DNA of 6,437 nucleotides from a virus. Lineage: Duplodnaviria; Heunggongvirae; Uroviricota; Caudoviricetes. This document shows, piece by piece, positions 384 through 6,437 of this stretch. The notes beneath the pieces were generated by a model. The model did not search any database. It was not told the DNA's origin and was given only the letters and a program-made list of their open reading frames with translations. The position numbers and the translations under genes were made by a program. The DNA lies in the IMG/VR virus record IMGVR_UViG_2617270947_000009. One strand, written 5' to 3'. The first letter of the stretch is position 1; each line of letters begins with the position of its first letter.

Positions 384-386
384 CTG

Positions 387-2204
387 GTGGATAAATCCGG
401 CGCAGTCACAGCAGCACAGACTATTACCTCACATGGTGAAAAAAGACTCCTGACAGGTTCGGCAAAGCGGGGGGCATATCACGCCATAAACGCACAGAAA
501 CGACCTCACAGCATCATAATTGCTGAGGGGGTGGCTACCGCCCTGTCGTGCCATTTAATTCGCCCTGACGCAATGACAGTGGCAGCAATCGACGCTGGCA
601 ACCTGTTGCCAGTAGCGGAAGTCATGCGCAGAACATATCCACAGGCACAAATCATCATTGCCGCAGATAACGATCACCAGCAAGGAAACTCCGAAAGTGG
701 AGGGATCAACACGGGGAAAGATGCCGCAGAGAGGGCCGCTATTTCCGTAGCTGGCTGGGTGTCTCTGCCACCGACTGACTATAAAGCCGACTGGAACGAC
801 TATCACCAACAACACGGGCTGGCGGCAGCCACAGCAGCATTTAAAGATTCGATGTACCAGCCACGGGGGAAAGGGGCGCAGGTGAAAAATCACAAACAGT
901 CAGTCGGGGCGCTGAATGAGATCAGTTCTGGCGAGGTGTTAAGCGATGATGAAATTGCTGTCCTCGAAGAAATCAACCGGACGTTTACGCATGTCACCAT
1001 CGGCGGGAAACACAAGGGGGGGTCGCTAAAGCCTTCTCAAAACGGCGGGGTATCGCACCTTTTTGAGGGTTTATCACAATTTCAGCATTATTTTCATCAT
1101 AAACCGAGAGTCGCCAGAAAGCTGGCGGGATCGGCGTGGCTGTCATGGAGTGGGAAGAACTACAAGCCAGGAGGCGTAGGATTTTATCCAGTACCAGACA
1201 AATGCCCTGACGATGTTTTTAATCTGTATGAGGGGCTGGCACTGGAACCAATTGAAGGAGATTGCACGGTATACCTTAATCACCTGTTGCAGGTTGTCTG
1301 TGCCGGTAATGAAGAGGCATACCAATATCTTATCCAGTGGATGGCGCACATTATCCAAAAGCCTGATGAAAAACCGTCCGTGGCAATCGTGATGAAATCT
1401 GTCCCGGGCACAGGGAAAGGCACAACGGTTAAACCGCTGCTGCAAATACTGGGGCAGTACGCCGCCCACATTAACGGGGCGGGACATATTTCAGGGCGCT
1501 TCAATTCAATACTTGCTAACAAACTACTGGTATTTGCTGACGAAGTGACGATCCACAAGCCGTCTGAAGCTGACAGACTTAAAGCGATTATTAGTGAACC
1601 GACGTTTAACCTTGAGCGCAAGGGAATTGATGCTGAACCAATGCCGAATTTTGCCCGGTTGATATTTGCCAGTAACAGCACACAGGTATTACAGGCAGGG
1701 ATAAGAGAGCGTCGCTATCTCGTGCTTGAGCCATCTCCTGAAAAAGCACAGAGCCGGGAGTATTTTGATCGGCTGTACAGTTGGCTTAATGATGGCGGTG
1801 CCGCAAAGTTGCTTTGGCATCTTAAAGGGGTGGATCTCTCAGGTTTTGACCCTCAACGAGCGCCACAGACCGATGCCTTACGTGAAGAAATCTTGCTGGG
1901 GCTGTCTGGCGTTGAATTGTTTCTTTATGGCGAGCTAATCAATGAACCTCCGTTTAATGGCGAAGTCCGTTTGTTTGCAAAGGATATGGTTAGTCGGTTT
2001 GTAGCGTGGTCGCTTGAGCGTGGGGAAAAGCTTAAAGAACCAGCTGCCAGATCACTACTGGGTAAATCACTTGCACAAATGGGGCTGGTGAAGCATGGAA
2101 GACCAGACCGAGGGAATGGCGTGTTCTACGAACTACCAGAGGTCGGAGTTCTACAGGCTGCGTTTGCCCGTCTGATCGGTATGGGGGGTTATGATGTTTT
2201 TTAA
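387..2204 (+). CDS. P4 alpha-type primase/helicase, N-terminally truncated at the IS junction (likely pseudogene or remnant)
   Basis: Toprim motif AEGVATA (E codon at 525-527) and IIIAADNDHQ DxD motif (D codons 666-668 and 672-674); Walker A VPGTGKGT (approx. 1404-1424) and Walker B LLVFADE (approx. 1525-1545). The open frame begins immediately at the IS end (384), with GTG at 387 as first possible start. In P4 alpha the EGYATA motif lies about 170 residues further from the N-terminus, so about 170 aa including the zinc-binding region appear missing. Stop TAA at 2202-2204. Confidence 0.8.
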   Translation: MDKSGAVTAAQTITSHGEKRLLTGSAKRGAYHAINAQKRPHSIIIAEGVATALSCHLIRPDAMTVAAIDAGNLLPVAEVMRRTYPQAQIIIAADNDHQQGNSESGGINTGKDAAERAAISVAGWVSLPPTDYKADWNDYHQQHGLAAATAAFKDSMYQPRGKGAQVKNHKQSVGALNEISSGEVLSDDEIAVLEEINRTFTHVTIGGKHKGGSLKPSQNGGVSHLFEGLSQFQHYFHHKPRVARKLAGSAWLSWSGKNYKPGGVGFYPVPDKCPDDVFNLYEGLALEPIEGDCTVYLNHLLQVVCAGNEEAYQYLIQWMAHIIQKPDEKPSVAIVMKSVPGTGKGTTVKPLLQILGQYAAHINGAGHISGRFNSILANKLLVFADEVTIHKPSEADRLKAIISEPTFNLERKGIDAEPMPNFARLIFASNSTQVLQAGIRERRYLVLEPSPEKAQSREYFDRLYSWLNDGGAAKLLWHLKGVDLSGFDPQRAPQTDALREEILLGLSGVELFLYGELINEPPFNGEVRLFAKDMVSRFVAWSLERGEKLKEPAARSLLGKSLAQMGLVKHGRPDRGNGVFYELPEVGVLQAAFARLIGMGGYDVF

Positions 2205-2233
2205 TATAGTCTTTTTACAAGAAGATCGTTTTT

Positions 2234-2337
2234 ACCTGTACCACCTATACCACTTTGATAATTCAGCATTAAAAACAATGCGTTATAGTGGTACAGGTCA
2301 ATATCTTACCTATACCAGACCTGTACCACCTATACCA
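2234..2337. repeat. Iteron cluster downstream of primase (candidate origin): 19-bp direct repeat ACCTGTACCACCTATACCA at 2234-2252 and 2319-2337, inverted core copy GTGGTACAGGT at 2288-2298, partial copy CCTATACCAG at 2308-2317, flanking an AT-rich stretch (2254-2287)
   Basis: Repeats read directly from the sequence; the arrangement of iterons next to an AT-rich segment just 3' of a primase/helicase gene resembles P4 ori and SaPI/PICI origins. Confidence 0.6.
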
Positions 2338-2380
2338 TTAACAAACGCATTTCTTCTGGCTGGCTGAAAGGGAACAACCA

Positions 2381-2611
2381 ATGATGAGCACACCATTTTA
2401 CAAAGTGCGCCAGTTAGCTTCTTCCTCTGGCTGGCAGCTACGGTTTGAGGGGCGTTCAGACTGGCTACCCATTGCGGCATGGGCGAATGTTGAAATGTGT
2501 ATTGACGGCGATACCGTTGAAATCATTATTCCCTGCGTGGCAAGTCGGGACGGCTGTATAGAGCCAACAGATATGGCAGCAGAAATCAGAGAGGTAAAAC
2601 ATGAACAATAA
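2381..2611 (+). CDS. Hypothetical protein, 76 aa
   Basis: ATG at 2381 preceded by AAAGGG (2368-2373) at appropriate spacing; overlaps the next gene by 11 nt (translational coupling); no family recognised by eye. Confidence 0.55.
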   Translation: MMSTPFYKVRQLASSSGWQLRFEGRSDWLPIAAWANVEMCIDGDTVEIIIPCVASRDGCIEPTDMAAEIREVKHEQ

Positions 2612-3338
2612 CTATTGCATACCGCAGGGAATGACCAGAACGGAGCGCGAAGAATTAAAAAGTTTCGCTACACAGTGCGGGAATGCTGGCGACATCCAAA
2701 GTCTGGAACGCACTTTAATTATGATTACGCACTGGATGCGTCAGGGGCAAAGGGTTTCATTTACTGAATATGCCAGCCAGTGGACAGAGGCACAGCGCGA
2801 ACGGAGCGACGGTAATCACTCAACACCCGAAATGGCGAAGCAATGGCCTTTCAGTGGTAAACGCTGTATCAGTCCCGGTGGTTCAGATTATTACCCTGCT
2901 GGTGTGGGAGATGAGCCATGTTGTGACGAGACTGAAATCCGCCACGCAGTGACAGTAATTACCGCTGAATACCCACAATTTAACCTTGACGGACTGGCGC
3001 TCCACAACCGGAATGCGGACTGGGAAAACCCGCTTGATAACCCGTCATTTATCGTATCGGCGAAAAGCTGCCTGAGATGGATCAGAGACAACGGGATGAG
3101 TAATGCCCAGATTGAGAGCTTCCCGCAGGATAACCCCACATCTGACACGTTGAAGCATGAAGTGGAGCGATATAACCAGATAAACCACCAGCACAGTGAT
3201 CACCCGCACTATATCCCCAACGGAGCATTTATTGCGGCGATGGTGGCAAGCGGCTACAAGGTTAAGCCAGCGGGAAGAATGAACGCATTTTTCAATATTT
3301 CAAAAAAGGGATTATGTGCTGCTATGGGTAAAAATTAA
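2601..3338 (+). CDS. Hypothetical protein, 245 aa
   Basis: ATG at 2601 preceded by GAGAGG (2588-2593); open frame to TAA at 3336-3338; ORF of this length in the same orientation as neighbours; no recognisable catalytic motif. Confidence 0.6.
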   Translation: MNNNYCIPQGMTRTEREELKSFATQCGNAGDIQSLERTLIMITHWMRQGQRVSFTEYASQWTEAQRERSDGNHSTPEMAKQWPFSGKRCISPGGSDYYPAGVGDEPCCDETEIRHAVTVITAEYPQFNLDGLALHNRNADWENPLDNPSFIVSAKSCLRWIRDNGMSNAQIESFPQDNPTSDTLKHEVERYNQINHQHSDHPHYIPNGAFIAAMVASGYKVKPAGRMNAFFNISKKGLCAAMGKN

Positions 3339-3343
3339 ATAAA

Positions 3344-3447
3344 TGGTACAGGTCTGTACAGGTGGGGAGAGGTCATTTTTACCCACCTGTACCACCTGCA
3401 GGCCGCGTCACAAAAGGGTTTGTGACATGGTGGTACAGGTGGTACAG
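3344..3447. repeat. Second iteron cluster with the same core (CCTGTACCACC / GGTGGTACAGG): GGTACAGGT 3345-3353, TGTACAGGTGG 3355-3365, CACCTGTACCACCTG 3384-3398, GGTGGTACAGGTGGTACAG 3429-3447; the last two form an inverted repeat around the palindrome at 3407-3426
   Basis: Read directly from the sequence; same core motif as the 2234-2337 cluster, present in both orientations. Confidence 0.6.
3407..3426. promoter_or_regulatory. Perfect palindrome GTCACAAA-AGGG-TTTGTGAC (8-bp arms, 4-nt spacer) nested between inverted iterons; candidate protein-binding site
   Basis: Exact reverse-complement arms at 3407-3414 and 3419-3426; not followed by a T-run, so unlikely to be a terminator. Confidence 0.4.
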
Positions 3448-3611
3448 CAAAAACAGCGATTTTCTTTATAAGGTTTTATAAGGTATGTTTTGCTCATCTG
3501 GCAGACGGAGGTATTCGCTGCGGTTTGGCACATAGCCCAGAACAGCAAAGAGTTTTACGAGACTTTTGTAAAATCCAGTGTACAAGGGCGTGACGTTTTT
3601 GAAGGAGGGAC

Positions 3612-3628
3612 CTACGAAATTTTCGTAG
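3612..3628. promoter_or_regulatory. 17-bp perfect palindrome CTACGAAA-T-TTTCGTAG; candidate operator
   Basis: Arms 3612-3619 and 3621-3628 are exact reverse complements; AT-rich centre; preceded by a GAAGGAGGG stretch (3601-3609) with no start codon following. Confidence 0.35.
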
Positions 3629-3822
3629 TTCAAAAAATAGCCTCTGAGATGTTGTTATGCCTGTTCAGCAAACCATCCGCATAGCTGATCGCGAATCAAA
3701 TTACCAATGGAGCCAGAAGCAAGGGCAGAACTGGAAAGCGCCTGCCGTGAAGAGTAATGCGACATCGTAAATATAGTTTTTAGAGTCCATAAAAAAACTG
3801 TCAAAACCTGACATACAGAACG

Positions 3823-3855
3823 ATGCCACCAGCTACTGAACGGTGGCATTTTTTT
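3823..3855 (+). terminator. Rho-independent terminator (8-bp GC-rich stem ATGCCACC/GGTGGCAT, 11-nt loop, run of 7 T)
   Basis: Stem 3823-3830 pairs with 3842-3849; T-run 3849-3855; orientation fits + strand transcription only. Confidence 0.6.
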
Positions 3856-3874
3856 GTGCTATTTGTTTCATATT

Positions 3875-3917
3875 TTGCAATCACAATGATGAATGTTGCG
3901 TTTTATGAAACTATAAT
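3875..3917 (+). promoter_or_regulatory. Putative promoter for the downstream operon: consensus -10 TATAAT at 3912-3917; no good -35 at 16-18 bp spacing (TTGCAA at 3875-3880 is 31 bp upstream)
   Basis: Perfect -10 hexamer 34 nt upstream of the 3951 start codon and downstream of the terminator; the lack of a -35 suggests activator dependence or a misplaced call. Confidence 0.35.
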
Positions 3918-3950
3918 GACTGTTGTTTTATACAGTTCTAAGGGGGCGTT

Positions 3951-4124
3951 ATGGCTATTTCAGTAAAGCCAGTATTGATAAGTGAGAAGCAAATGGAAGC
4001 GATAAAGAAAATTCAGGAGGAGCAGCGTAAAAAATCAGAGGTAGGAGTTGCGCCAACGATCCACGAAATTGCTCGGGGATTAATGGATAAGGCGCTGGCT
4101 TACACTTTAACTGGACGTGGGTAA
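3951..4124 (+). CDS. Small hypothetical protein, 57 aa (MAISVKPVLISEKQMEAIKKIQEEQRKKSEVGVAPTIHEIARGLMDKALAYTLTGRG); possible small DNA-binding (ribbon-helix-helix-like) protein; absent from the supplied ORF track
   Basis: ATG at 3951 preceded by a strong Shine-Dalgarno AAGGGGG (3940-3946); stop TAA at 4122-4124, 4 nt before the ATG of the next gene; predicted strand-helix-turn-helix layout is inferred by eye only. Confidence 0.55.
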   Translation: MAISVKPVLISEKQMEAIKKIQEEQRKKSEVGVAPTIHEIARGLMDKALAYTLTGRG

Positions 4125-4128
4125 ATCA

Positions 4129-5595
4129 ATGGCTACGTGGCAACAGGGTATTAATTCTGGTGGTTTTCTGGCTGGCATCGGTACGCAAAATGAGAATGCG
4201 CCAAAGGCAAGCGACATTAACGCAACGCTTGGTCTGATCCGCGAAAACAATGAACTGGCTCGATCAGGTGCAAATAACGTTGCTCTGACAGGTCTTCGTG
4301 GTCTGGCTGGAGTTGCTGATATTTATAAGCAGCAGCAACAGCAGGAGCGTAAAGCGGCATTCCAGAAAGGTTATGCAGATGCTTATGCGTCCGGTGACAG
4401 GGAGCAGATGCGTAATCTTATTACAGCATTCCCAGAAGAGTTTGAGGAAGTCCGTAAAGGGATGAGTTATGTCGATGATGCTCAAAGGGATGATTATGGC
4501 AATCTGGCGCTCAAAGCACAGGTAGCCTCATCGCTTGGTCAGGGCGCATTTGGCAGGTTCATGATGGATAATGAGCAGGAGATGCGTCGTTTAGGTATCC
4601 CTCCAGAAACTATTGCTGAAATGCAGGTTAATGACCCGCAGGGCTTCCAGCATTTCGCAGGTAATCTGGCGCTGTTTTCTCTCGGTCATGAGAAGTATTT
4701 CGATATCAAAGATCAAATGGAAGGTCGGGATATTGAACGTGGCAAGTTGGCAGAGACAATCCGCAGCAATCAGGCCAGCGAAGCACTTCAGGCGAGAGGG
4801 CAGGATATTAGCCGAGCAAATGCGTTAACGTCAGCATATGCACCAACAGCAGCAATGCAGAATTACAATCAGTACGCTCAAATGTTAAAGGCGGATCCAG
4901 AGGGGGCGGCGGCATTTGCGGCAGCGGCTGGAATTAATACAAACGCCAAAAAATTAATGAGTGTTAGAGAAAACGATGATGGCACTGTCACAAAATACTA
5001 CACAGACGGAAGTGAAGAGCAGGGAAAACTAAACCAGCCAATATCTGGAGATGGGTTTCGTCCAATAGCTTTGCCAACAGCCCAAAAGATCATGGAAAAG
5101 TCGCCAGAAGGGGCTAAAAAAGCTGCTGGATTTGCATACAGAGTTAGGGATGCTCTTGATTCAATGGATACACTGAAAGGCCAGCTTAGCCCACAGCGAG
5201 TGGCGATCATTAATAATGCTTTGGGTAATGGGACGCTGGCTAACTTAACGCTCACCCCAACAGAGCAGCAATACGTTGTTAATGCTAATGACGCAATAAT
5301 GGCAATACTCCGTCAGGAAACAGGGGCAGCTATCGTACCTGCTGAAATGTCAAAATATTATCAAATGTATTTCCCTCAGCCTGGCGACTCCACAAAAACC
5401 ATTGATACCAAGCGCCGGAAGATGGAAAACCAGTTCAATTCGCTGAAAGCTGCTTCTGGTCGAGCTTATGATGCTTTGCGGGTTATTTCAGCAGTTGACA
5501 GAGGGACTTCTTCTTCGTCGCAGACATTGCCGCAATCTGAGCAGGTATCACAGCCAGCAGCCAGCAGTAATTTTTCTTCACTATGGGGTGATTAA
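4129..5595 (+). CDS. Hypothetical protein, about 488 aa (492 aa if the GTG at 4117 is used); Ala/Gln/Gly-rich, low complexity with a QQQQQ run, no catalytic motif recognised
   Basis: Long uninterrupted frame; ATG at 4129 closely follows the upstream stop; stop TAA at 5593-5595 overlaps the next start (TAATG); the composition is the kind seen in phage scaffold, ejection or tape-measure-like proteins, but the family is not identified. Confidence 0.65.
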   Translation: MATWQQGINSGGFLAGIGTQNENAPKASDINATLGLIRENNELARSGANNVALTGLRGLAGVADIYKQQQQQERKAAFQKGYADAYASGDREQMRNLITAFPEEFEEVRKGMSYVDDAQRDDYGNLALKAQVASSLGQGAFGRFMMDNEQEMRRLGIPPETIAEMQVNDPQGFQHFAGNLALFSLGHEKYFDIKDQMEGRDIERGKLAETIRSNQASEALQARGQDISRANALTSAYAPTAAMQNYNQYAQMLKADPEGAAAFAAAAGINTNAKKLMSVRENDDGTVTKYYTDGSEEQGKLNQPISGDGFRPIALPTAQKIMEKSPEGAKKAAGFAYRVRDALDSMDTLKGQLSPQRVAIINNALGNGTLANLTLTPTEQQYVVNANDAIMAILRQETGAAIVPAEMSKYYQMYFPQPGDSTKTIDTKRRKMENQFNSLKAASGRAYDALRVISAVDRGTSSSSQTLPQSEQVSQPAASSNFSSLWGD

Positions 5596-6011
5596 TGGCT
5601 AAAGCATGGAAAGATGTTATCGCCTCTCCACAGTATCAGGCGTTAGCACCAGAACAAAAAGCGCAGGCTCAGGAGCAATACTTCAATGAAGTCGTGGCCC
5701 CGCAAGCCGGAGAAAGTGTAGCGCAGGCTAAGCAGGCTTTTTATGCTGCCTATCCACTACCATCAACGAATGAAATAGACCGATCCCAATCAGCAACTCA
5801 AAATATTCAACATACATCATCTGATAATTCTCTTGCGTCAGGGTATGCAAAGTTAGCGACTCAGCAAAGAGAGGGGCTTGAGCGTTCAGCAGAACAGGGA
5901 GCCAGTCTTGGGGCTGCGATGCGCGATGCTATAACAGGCGAAAGCCGAATGACTCCAGAGATGGAGAGACTGCAAAATGTCGACCTTGCCCCAGAGTTAA
6001 CCTCACTCTGA
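5595..6011 (+). CDS. Hypothetical protein, 138 aa as it stands; probably C-terminally truncated, because the stop codon TGA (6009-6011) is the first three bases of the IS terminus
   Basis: ATG at 5595 overlaps the preceding stop (translational coupling); the last native codon ends at 6008 and the IS end TGAACCGCCCCGG begins at 6009. Confidence 0.55.
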   Translation: MAKAWKDVIASPQYQALAPEQKAQAQEQYFNEVVAPQAGESVAQAKQAFYAAYPLPSTNEIDRSQSATQNIQHTSSDNSLASGYAKLATQQREGLERSAEQGASLGAAMRDAITGESRMTPEMERLQNVDLAPELTSL

Positions 6012-6437
6012 ACCGCCCCGGGTTTCCTGGAGAGTGTTTTATCTGTGAACTCAGGCTGCCAGATCATCGTTTCCGATGGAAGCATAATAAGCTTTTTCTG
6101 CTTCTGCCGGAGGAGTATGGCCCAGCCTTTCCAGCAATCGTCGATTGTTATACCAGTCCACCCACGTGAGTGTGGCCAGTTCCACTTCTGCACGGTTTTT
6201 CCAGCTCTTACGGTGTATTACCTCCGCTTTGTAAAGACCATTGATGCTCTCCGCCATCGCGTTGTCATACGAGTCGCCTGTACTTCCTGTTGATGCCAGT
6301 AATCCGGCTTCCTTAAGCCGCTGTGTGTAGGCCAGCGATACATACTGAGAACCTTTATCACTGTGATGGACCGTGCCGGACGGTCGACGGGCCCATAACG
6401 CCTGCTCCAGTGCATCCAGCACGAATGTCGTTTCCAT
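6009..6437 (-). mobile_element. Partial IS3-family insertion sequence, second copy in inverted orientation (terminal repeat plus 3' part of transposase gene); continues beyond the window end
   Basis: 6009-6391 is the reverse complement of 1-383, with two mismatches found by eye (6022 and 6074); terminal sequence TGAACCGCCCCGGGTTTCCTGG at 6009-6030. Confidence 0.85.
6051..6437 (-). CDS. IS3-family transposase OrfB (DDE integrase domain), C-terminal portion; 5'-partial at window edge
   Basis: Translation ...RRPSGTVHHSDKGSQYVSLAYTQRLKEAGLLASTGSTGDSYDNAMAESINGLYKAEVIH...ASIGNDDLAA matches the copy at 1-341 except one residue (G vs R); stop (TCA on + strand) at 6051-6053. Confidence 0.85.
   Translation of the reverse strand: METTFVLDALEQALWARRPSGTVHHSDKGSQYVSLAYTQRLKEAGLLASTGSTGDSYDNAMAESINGLYKAEVIHRKSWKNRAEVELATLTWVDWYNNRRLLERLGHTPPAEAEKAYYASIGNDDLAA

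Follow-up and report, generated by a model that had tools for sequence, protein, structure and literature searches.

A conserved small gene with a predicted ribbon-helix-helix product and a candidate operator pair at the head of an ejection-protein operon in an EcCIMP1-type satellite

The small gene and its ribosome-binding site

The viral record IMGVR_UViG_2617270947_000009 comprises 6,437 nt of DNA (the window, meaning the whole stretch analysed), of which positions 384-6008 are 99% identical to part of an island at the tRNA-Thr gene next to proA (thrW). The island is of the EcCIMP1 type, a group of phage-inducible chromosomal islands (PICIs); experiments on EcCIMP1 itself, from E. coli MP1, have demonstrated excision, replication and transfer that depend on a helper, the P22-like phage Kapi1, by which this island is transduced (Pick, Stadel & Raivio, ISME J 2025, PMC11773190). 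Between the replication module of the island and its genes for DNA-ejection proteins lies a 57 amino acid (aa) open reading frame (ORF) on the + strand, from ATG 3951 to TAA 4122-4124, whose product is predicted to be a ribbon-helix-helix (RHH) protein; that this ORF is a real, functional gene is nearly certain.

The ORF is preceded by the Shine-Dalgarno (SD) sequence AAGGGGG (3940-3946, + strand), 4 nt 5' of the ATG, with a predicted pairing energy to the 16S anti-SD of -11.1 kcal/mol. An earlier reading made from the letters of the window (the sequence-only reading) had named this the best ribosome-binding site in the window; the claim stands, with the qualification that the top rank among all + strand start codons is shared with an internal TTG at 4916. 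The annotated neighbours have far weaker pairing, from -4.4 to -7.8 kcal/mol, and the SD position is kept in all related loci as GGAGG or GGGGG. The same reading placed the next gene directly after the ORF, which is confirmed by a gap of 4 nt between the stop codon and ATG 4129. In complete E. coli genomes exactly this ORF is called by the RefSeq/NCBI pipeline as the hypothetical protein WP_001018522.1, and the 401-bp region around it is matched in 866 of 5426 such genomes.

Conservation and selection

Conservation of the ORF in homologous loci, the touchstone proposed by the sequence-only reading, is found: homologues keep their length and reading frame down to ~35% identity and across more than 12 genera of Enterobacterales. 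The small gene is under purifying selection: dN/dS (the ratio of nonsynonymous to synonymous substitution rates) is 0.08-0.18 in the comparisons with unsaturated dS. Among 5.8 billion proteins searched, the single sequence recovers 45 relatives and a profile 129; every one is unnamed or 'hypothetical' and lacks a Pfam domain; an exhaustive hidden Markov model (HMM) search of 1.84 billion cluster representatives returned only 55 clusters. The named sources of the relatives are exclusively Enterobacterales (Escherichia, Klebsiella, Raoultella, Serratia, Erwinia, Pantoea, Citrobacter, Enterobacter, Cedecea, Yokenella, Providencia and others).

The family follows the conserved pattern [KR]-P-V-L-L, x3-Q-x2-a-l-x2-I-Q-E-x-E-R-x2-S-x2-G-x-A-P-[TS]-I-H-x-I-A-R-x-L-x-k-A-L, in which R42 is invariant; the second predicted helix is nearly invariant, and the C-terminal tail is variable with 4-10 residues. 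A tblastn search of 50,697 phage genomes gave no homologue of the small protein, and for this reason the ORF is regarded neither as part of a phage ejection-gene module nor as a remnant of gp7 or gp14. A second ORF of 61 aa in the Raoultella islands was suspected of being a paralogue and was rejected as unrelated.

Predicted structure

The elements predicted for the 57-aa protein are a strand at about residues 5-10 (VKPVLI), helix A (12-28) and helix B (37-53), the two helices being separated by a loop that runs from S29 through G32-V-A-P-T36. AlphaFold2 with 37 diverse homologues gives a model with a mean pLDDT (predicted local distance difference test) of 89.1 and a pTM (predicted template modelling score) of 0.68. 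In this monomer residues 1-11 are extended and unpaired, followed by helix A, an 8-residue loop and helix B; an extended, unpaired N-terminus is the expectation for an RHH protomer, and the strand-helix-helix arrangement of about 45 residues that defines the RHH superfamily is present. With 15 close homologues the model is poor (pLDDT 74, pTM 0.31). By structure comparison the fold matches DNA-binding RHH domains, the best match being the N-domain of TraM. G32 and [T/S]36, which vary little or not at all, stand immediately before helix B; the turn, G-V-A-P-T, is longer than the classic G-x-S/T/N motif.

A number of observations weigh against an RHH assignment. Foldseek gave nothing significant with either AlphaFold2 model, TraM (1dp3) appearing among the non-significant matches at E ~7. 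Family searches were made with single-sequence and profile queries: no RHH family was found in Pfam at E <= 10 for any of the 15 members tested, the ORF had no meaningful match in NCBIfam, PHROGs or PADLOC, and no RHH chain was found among PDB sequences by phmmer or profile; hhalign of the family profile against Arc and Mnt of Kapi1 likewise gave nothing. The 8-residue loop exceeds that of classic RHH proteins, and as the model is of a monomer the intermolecular sheet that defines the fold is not visible there. The resemblance to small RHH/Arc-type proteins noted by the sequence-only reading holds at the level of the strand-helix-helix predicted by AlphaFold2; sequence methods place the protein in no RHH family. 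On balance the modelling makes an RHH fold highly probable, that is, well supported and short of proven, and the protein is filed as a new, uncharacterised family inside this fold.

Promoter and candidate operators

The region 5' of the small gene opens with an intrinsic terminator on the + strand (3823-3855; stem ATGCCACC / GGTGGCAT, an 11-nt loop and a T-run), which insulates the promoter of the ORF from the upstream replication module; other genera have a similar stem and T-run at the corresponding place. Downstream of it lies a perfect consensus -10 hexamer, TATAAT (3912-3917, + strand), with 1.6 bits per position across loci. At 17 bp from the -10, the hexamer ATGAAT (3889-3894, + strand) agrees with TTGACA at 3 of 6 positions and, judged by position and composition, would serve as a weak -35; a consensus promoter scan found no canonical promoter, which is attributed to the -35 falling under the scan threshold.

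Two 15-bp palindromes, readable on both strands, flank the -35-like hexamer and are candidate operators. O1 (TTTCATATTTTGCAA, 3866-3880) matches the motif TTKCA-N5-TGMAA at 10 of 10 positions; the promoter-proximal O2 (TTGCGTTTTATGAAA, 3896-3910) matches at 9 of 10, occupies the -35/-10 spacer and ends 1 nt short of the -10. The start-to-start distance between the two is exactly 30 bp. To compare operators, 25 distinct loci were picked solely by protein homology and the 90 bp directly 5' of the ORF were taken from each; all 25 share the same architecture, with the position of O2 relative to the -10 unchanged. In all but one of the 25 loci (24) O2 agrees with the motif at 9 or 10 of its 10 positions, and in 18 an O1 with a score of at least 8 of 10 lies at the 30-bp offset; the remaining seven, all of Erwinia/Pantoea type, have a weaker O1 (TTTCATAAATCGGCA-like) at the identical offset. 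Information content is highest in the half-sites (1.65 bits) and falls through the inner spacers (0.96) and the stretch between the sites (0.67) to the upstream flank (0.5).

The promoter architecture is specific as well as conserved. Perfect (10/10) motif matches number 36 in the ~370 kb that these loci span, and 33 of them lie at O1 or O2 positions. When 2.9 million viral contigs were searched for the DNA pattern only, 27 matches were obtained; an ORF recognised by the family HMM (E <= 1e-10) lies immediately 3' of 25 of them, and the other two are unrelated loci.

One off-target match to the operator pattern (4564-4615 of locus L039) has directly 3' of it a divergent 91-aa ORF (4289-4564, - strand), whose C-terminal half (VSVYISPDIIAALNARFEE...PSVGWMVRSHLRAAL) aligns in register with the family at a non-significant hhalign E of 0.09; to judge from this alignment, the ORF could be a very remote relative whose operators are alike. 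A further element, the repeat (A)CGATCAAA, is conserved 15-40 bp 5' of O1 in loci from outside E. coli (L002-L004, L011, L012, L015-L019, L022-L025), often as two copies ~10 bp apart, each with a GATC Dam site; it is missing from the window, in which the terminator adjoins O1, and may be a further regulatory input.

LexA-type box

A palindrome readable on both strands (CTGTTGTTTTATACAG, 3920-3935), separated from the -10 by 2 nt and spanning the transcription start predicted near 3924, resembles a LexA (SOS) box. The gammaproteobacterial LexA box is CTGT-N8-ACAG, with the consensus TACTGTATATATATACAGTA; the palindrome is the sole CTGT-N8-ACAG in the window, where 0.12 would be expected by chance. 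The match to the consensus suggests that LexA could bind at this site. Canonical spacing with differing inner sequence is present in 10 of the 25 distinct loci, from Escherichia (including EcCIMP1, L029 10843-10858), Serratia, Erwinia, Pantoea and Lonsdalea; retention of the spacing despite a changed inner sequence is the outcome expected under selection for the box. Counting against a general role, 12 of the loci, including Klebsiella/Raoultella, have CTG-N9-CAG spacing, which should not bind LexA, and three have no box at all. SOS control is thus likely a feature of the E. coli lineage and not universal; where present, the box would imply that the ejection-protein operon is gated by SOS without the involvement of AlpA.

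Downstream genes and variable cargo

The gene after the ORF (4129-5595, + strand) encodes a 488-aa P22 gp20-like DNA ejection protein (Pfam Inj_translocase, E 4e-83); it is followed by the N-terminal 138 codons of a gp16-like ejection protein (5595-6008, + strand), which is 701 aa in intact islands and is cut here by the right-hand copy of an insertion sequence (IS) of the IS3 family. The gp20-like protein does have phage homologues among the 50,697 phage genomes, in P22-like phages and APSE. Its gene has a weak SD, and is probably translationally coupled to the ORF; coupling is suggested by the strong SD of the leader gene, the weak SD of the next and the 4-nt gap. An alternative start, the in-frame GTG at 4117, falls within the last codons of the small ORF; from it the gp20-like protein would be 4 codons longer than from ATG 4129, and both starts are compatible with coupling.

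Throughout the loci examined, a replication module (a DUF5906, DUF927 or AAA_25 replicase, in some cases joined by SSB, ProQ or PerC) is followed first by the small gene, and the intergenic gap between the two usually ends in a terminator-like hairpin. What comes after the small gene varies with the genus. E. coli and Serratia (L005-L007 and L029 among the loci) carry P22-type ejection proteins; Raoultella has a phrog_7694 protein with a transglycosylase-like C-terminus and a terS-like gene; Erwinia, Pantoea, Chimaeribacter and Lonsdalea (L011, L012, L018, L020, L027) have tape-measure proteins. T7-like internal virion or transglycosylase proteins are found in Leclercia, Klebsiella and Pectobacterium (L014, L015, L026), the last also with a DarB-like protein; Rahnella (L021) has a baseplate-hub protein and E. 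marmotae two unknown proteins. Across genera the virion-internal or DNA-delivery cargo is of siphovirus, myovirus or podovirus type, which suggests that the islands carry injection proteins matched to their helpers, or decoys of them.

Proposed function and alternatives

The function proposed for the 57-aa protein, with a probability put at roughly 55%, is that of an RHH autorepressor which controls its own operon through O1 and O2. The ORF would be the first cistron of a separate transcription unit that starts after the terminator and carries the DNA-ejection (virion-internal) genes of the satellite. RHH proteins are obligate homodimers in which the N-terminal strands pair as an antiparallel ribbon; this ribbon reads DNA in the major groove, in most cases at repeated half-sites. 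The 57-aa protein would dimerise through its N-terminal strand VKPVLI, and dimers would occupy the half-sites of O1 (3866-3880) and O2 (3896-3910), whose centres lie 10 bp apart, as is usual where two RHH dimers share one DNA face. Occupancy would be expected to exclude RNA polymerase, because the sites lie on both sides of the weak -35 and take up the spacer as far as the -10; negative autoregulation of this kind would cap expression of the operon. In the E. coli lineage the LexA-type box over the transcription start would add an SOS gate. The operon would then fire upon induction of the helper prophage and be limited by RHH feedback, with translation of the cargo coupled to that of the regulator. 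A regulator is considered more likely than a chaperone or an antitoxin because the protein stays constant while its neighbours are swapped.

The case for autorepression has several weak points. Promoter and gene are adjacent and co-inherited, and their co-occurrence falls short of proving binding; the 10-bp half-site spacing is just as compatible with a helix-turn-helix (HTH) dimer, with a host factor or with a different protein of the island. No co-variation between strand residues and half-sites was found, and no obvious strand change accompanies the degenerate O1 of Erwinia/Pantoea. The weak -35 could equally point to an activator.

The last point bears on an unlikely alternative, in which the RHH protein acts in trans elsewhere, on helper-phage or host promoters or, like TraM/TraY, on the satellite origin or packaging DNA, and O1 and O2 are not its targets, or not its only ones. 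Another factor would then read the two sites, whether a host regulator, a helper-phage protein or a further island protein such as PerC or AlpA, possibly activating the poor -35. The position of O1, which would be centred near -51, suits an activator at such a promoter, and the extra CGATCAAA repeats 5' of O1 in loci from outside E. coli suggest more inputs. TraM, the best structural match, is an accessory DNA-binding protein and not a simple repressor; however, the 57-aa protein has no counterpart of the TraM C-terminal domain. Perfect motif matches are nearly confined to this promoter, no similar motif lies upstream of alpA in the islands examined, and helper phage Kapi1 has no O1/O2 pair, its single isolated match lying inside a gene. 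Neighbouring genes vary from locus to locus, and the RHH gene is the sole coding partner that always adjoins the operators.

A role without DNA binding, in which the product is an assembly or chaperone partner of the downstream virion-internal proteins or its gene a translational-coupling leader for them, is improbable. Its attraction is the gene order, as large virion-internal genes always adjoin the small gene on its 3' side, at very short distances or overlapping it, and the next gene has a weak SD. A chaperone should co-vary with its client, yet the protein is highly conserved beside unrelated clients (P22 gp14/7/20/16, tape measures, T7-like proteins, a baseplate hub and unknowns); it also has no homologue beside such genes in phage genomes, and its fold matches DNA-binding domains.

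The sequence-only reading had also allowed for an antitoxin, which fares worse: an RHH antitoxin of a type II toxin-antitoxin pair is very improbable, as the next gene encodes the 488-aa ejection protein in the window and tape-measure or other large, locus-variable virion proteins elsewhere, no toxin family was found, PADLOC had no match, and the tail of 4-10 variable residues is too short to neutralise a toxin. Finally, a chance ORF or remnant without function, for which the shortness of the protein and the lack of a family assignment might be cited, is extremely improbable in view of the low dN/dS, the conserved SD, the 129 database relatives, the confident structure prediction, and a frame and length conserved to ~35% identity.

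Replication region

The palindromes at 3612-3628 and 3407-3426, which the sequence-only reading had offered as operators of the small gene, do not hold up in that role; they lie 300-540 bp upstream, beyond the terminator, and are missing from locus L001, which matches the window at 100% in the small gene and its promoter. Both are confined to islands that share the replication module, or are unique, and belong to the primase/ori module. The former is a near-perfect hairpin (GACCTACGAAA/TTTCGTAGTTC) in the unannotated 600-bp gap that runs from a 245-aa gene to the terminator, and was found elsewhere only in L028, an island with the same replication module. The latter is contained in a cluster of GTACAGG(T) repeats (3343-3447) with at least 6 copies in both orientations, including inverted arms of 14-15 nt, just 3' of the primase-helicase gene and two small genes; a tandem pair of TTTATAAGGT follows the cluster (3465-3484). 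The cluster and the tandem pair together look like an iteron-type replication origin of the satellite.

The EcCIMP1-type satellite

Intact islands of this type read, in their left part, integrase, AlpA-type HTH, AntA, DUF4222, Ash, DUF5906 primase-helicase and two small genes; the right part comprises the gap of ~600 bp, the 57-aa gene, the gp20-like gene and the 701-aa gp16-like gene. These relatives have the layout of an EcCIMP1-like PICI, namely an integrase at a tRNA site, AlpA and a primase of their own, a size of ~10-20 kb and no full set of structural and lysis genes; the window is an IS-bounded fragment in which int and alpA do not lie. Its ends (1-383 and 6009-6437) are inverted copies of the 3' end of an IS3-family element, with 2 mismatches in 383 bp and the ends pointing inward; lying on either side of the island segment, they cut short the primase gene (5' side) and the gp16-like gene (3' side). 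The exact IS3-bounded arrangement occurs in none of the collection of complete E. coli genomes.

In the MP1 genome EcCIMP1 has a 53-aa homologue of the small protein, WP_001018524.1, which is 92% identical over the first 50 residues. EcCIMP1 shares with the window island the tRNA-Thr/proA site, the int-AlpA-AntA-Ash-primase backbone and a small gene behind the identical order of terminator, O1, O2, -10, LexA-type box and SD. The two differ in their replicase (DUF5906 in the window, DUF927 in EcCIMP1), in the IS3-family copies that bound the window segment, and in their cargo; behind its small gene EcCIMP1 carries DUF2824 (gp14-like), gp7-like, gp20-like and transglycosylase/gp16-like (SLT) genes, whereas in the window only the gp20-like and the truncated gp16-like genes follow.

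EcCIMP1 confers a superinfection immunity against Kapi1 (PMC11773190). The main text of that paper makes no mention of ribbon, LexA or ejection, and no discussion of the small gene or its promoter was found there. In the literature, no description was found of an RHH regulator in enterobacterial PICIs, nor of satellite-borne ejection or tape-measure genes as a class.

A wider reading, held tentatively, is that the RHH gene and its fixed O1-30 bp-O2/-10 promoter form a portable switch for interchangeable PICI cargo of virion-internal and DNA-delivery type; such a switch would be shared by an entire family of enterobacterial PICIs, with the LexA box in some lineages. If so, satellites would supply helper-matched DNA-delivery proteins or dominant-negative decoys of them, which could underlie the immunity of EcCIMP1 hosts to Kapi1. 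The analysis gives a testable function to a 'hypothetical protein' present in about one sixth of complete E. coli genomes and in many Enterobacterales, and pinpoints the promoter, candidate operators and probable SOS box of the least understood module of EcCIMP1-type islands. This module consists of copies of helper-phage DNA-injection proteins, for which the candidate roles are a packaging aid, a host-range tool or superinfection exclusion. Once a regulator-operator pair is defined, the module could be turned on and off in experiments.

Comparison with known systems

The 57-aa protein would act in the manner of the Arc, Mnt, CopG and omega repressors of the MetJ/Arc/CopG group, to which sequence kinship is undetectable. 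It differs from them in its longer, 8-residue loop and its own motif, S-x2-G-x-A-P-[TS]-I-H, and here two candidate operators stand at a fixed 30-bp spacing. The RHH antitoxins (ParD, TacA, RHH-type MazE and the CopG family) have a toxin partner and a C-terminal extension, both lacking here.

The closest fold is that of the N-terminal RHH domain of TraM (pED208, 3on0/3omy; R1, 1dp3). TraM has in addition a C-terminal domain for tetramerisation and TraD binding and acts at the oriT of F-like conjugative plasmids; in contrast, the 57-aa protein has no such domain, no relaxase or conjugation genes nearby and no match to Pfam Tra_M.

At the level of the operon, the nearest parallel is the LexA-controlled 'operon I' reportedly present in staphylococcal pathogenicity islands (SaPIs; Ubeda et al. 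2007, cited in PMC6092414). Like the operon described here, SaPI operon I lies downstream of a replication module, acts on helper virions and has a LexA-type box at its promoter; by this parallel LexA would time the operon to SOS induction of the helper prophage. The two differ in their bacteria, genes and proteins, and LexA control of the present operon is proposed from a consensus match that is lost in about half of the related loci. SaPI operon I is not known to have an RHH leader gene. As a type of protein the 57-aa product is ordinary; more unusual is its context, a conserved putative switch that would drive interchangeable DNA-delivery genes in satellites.

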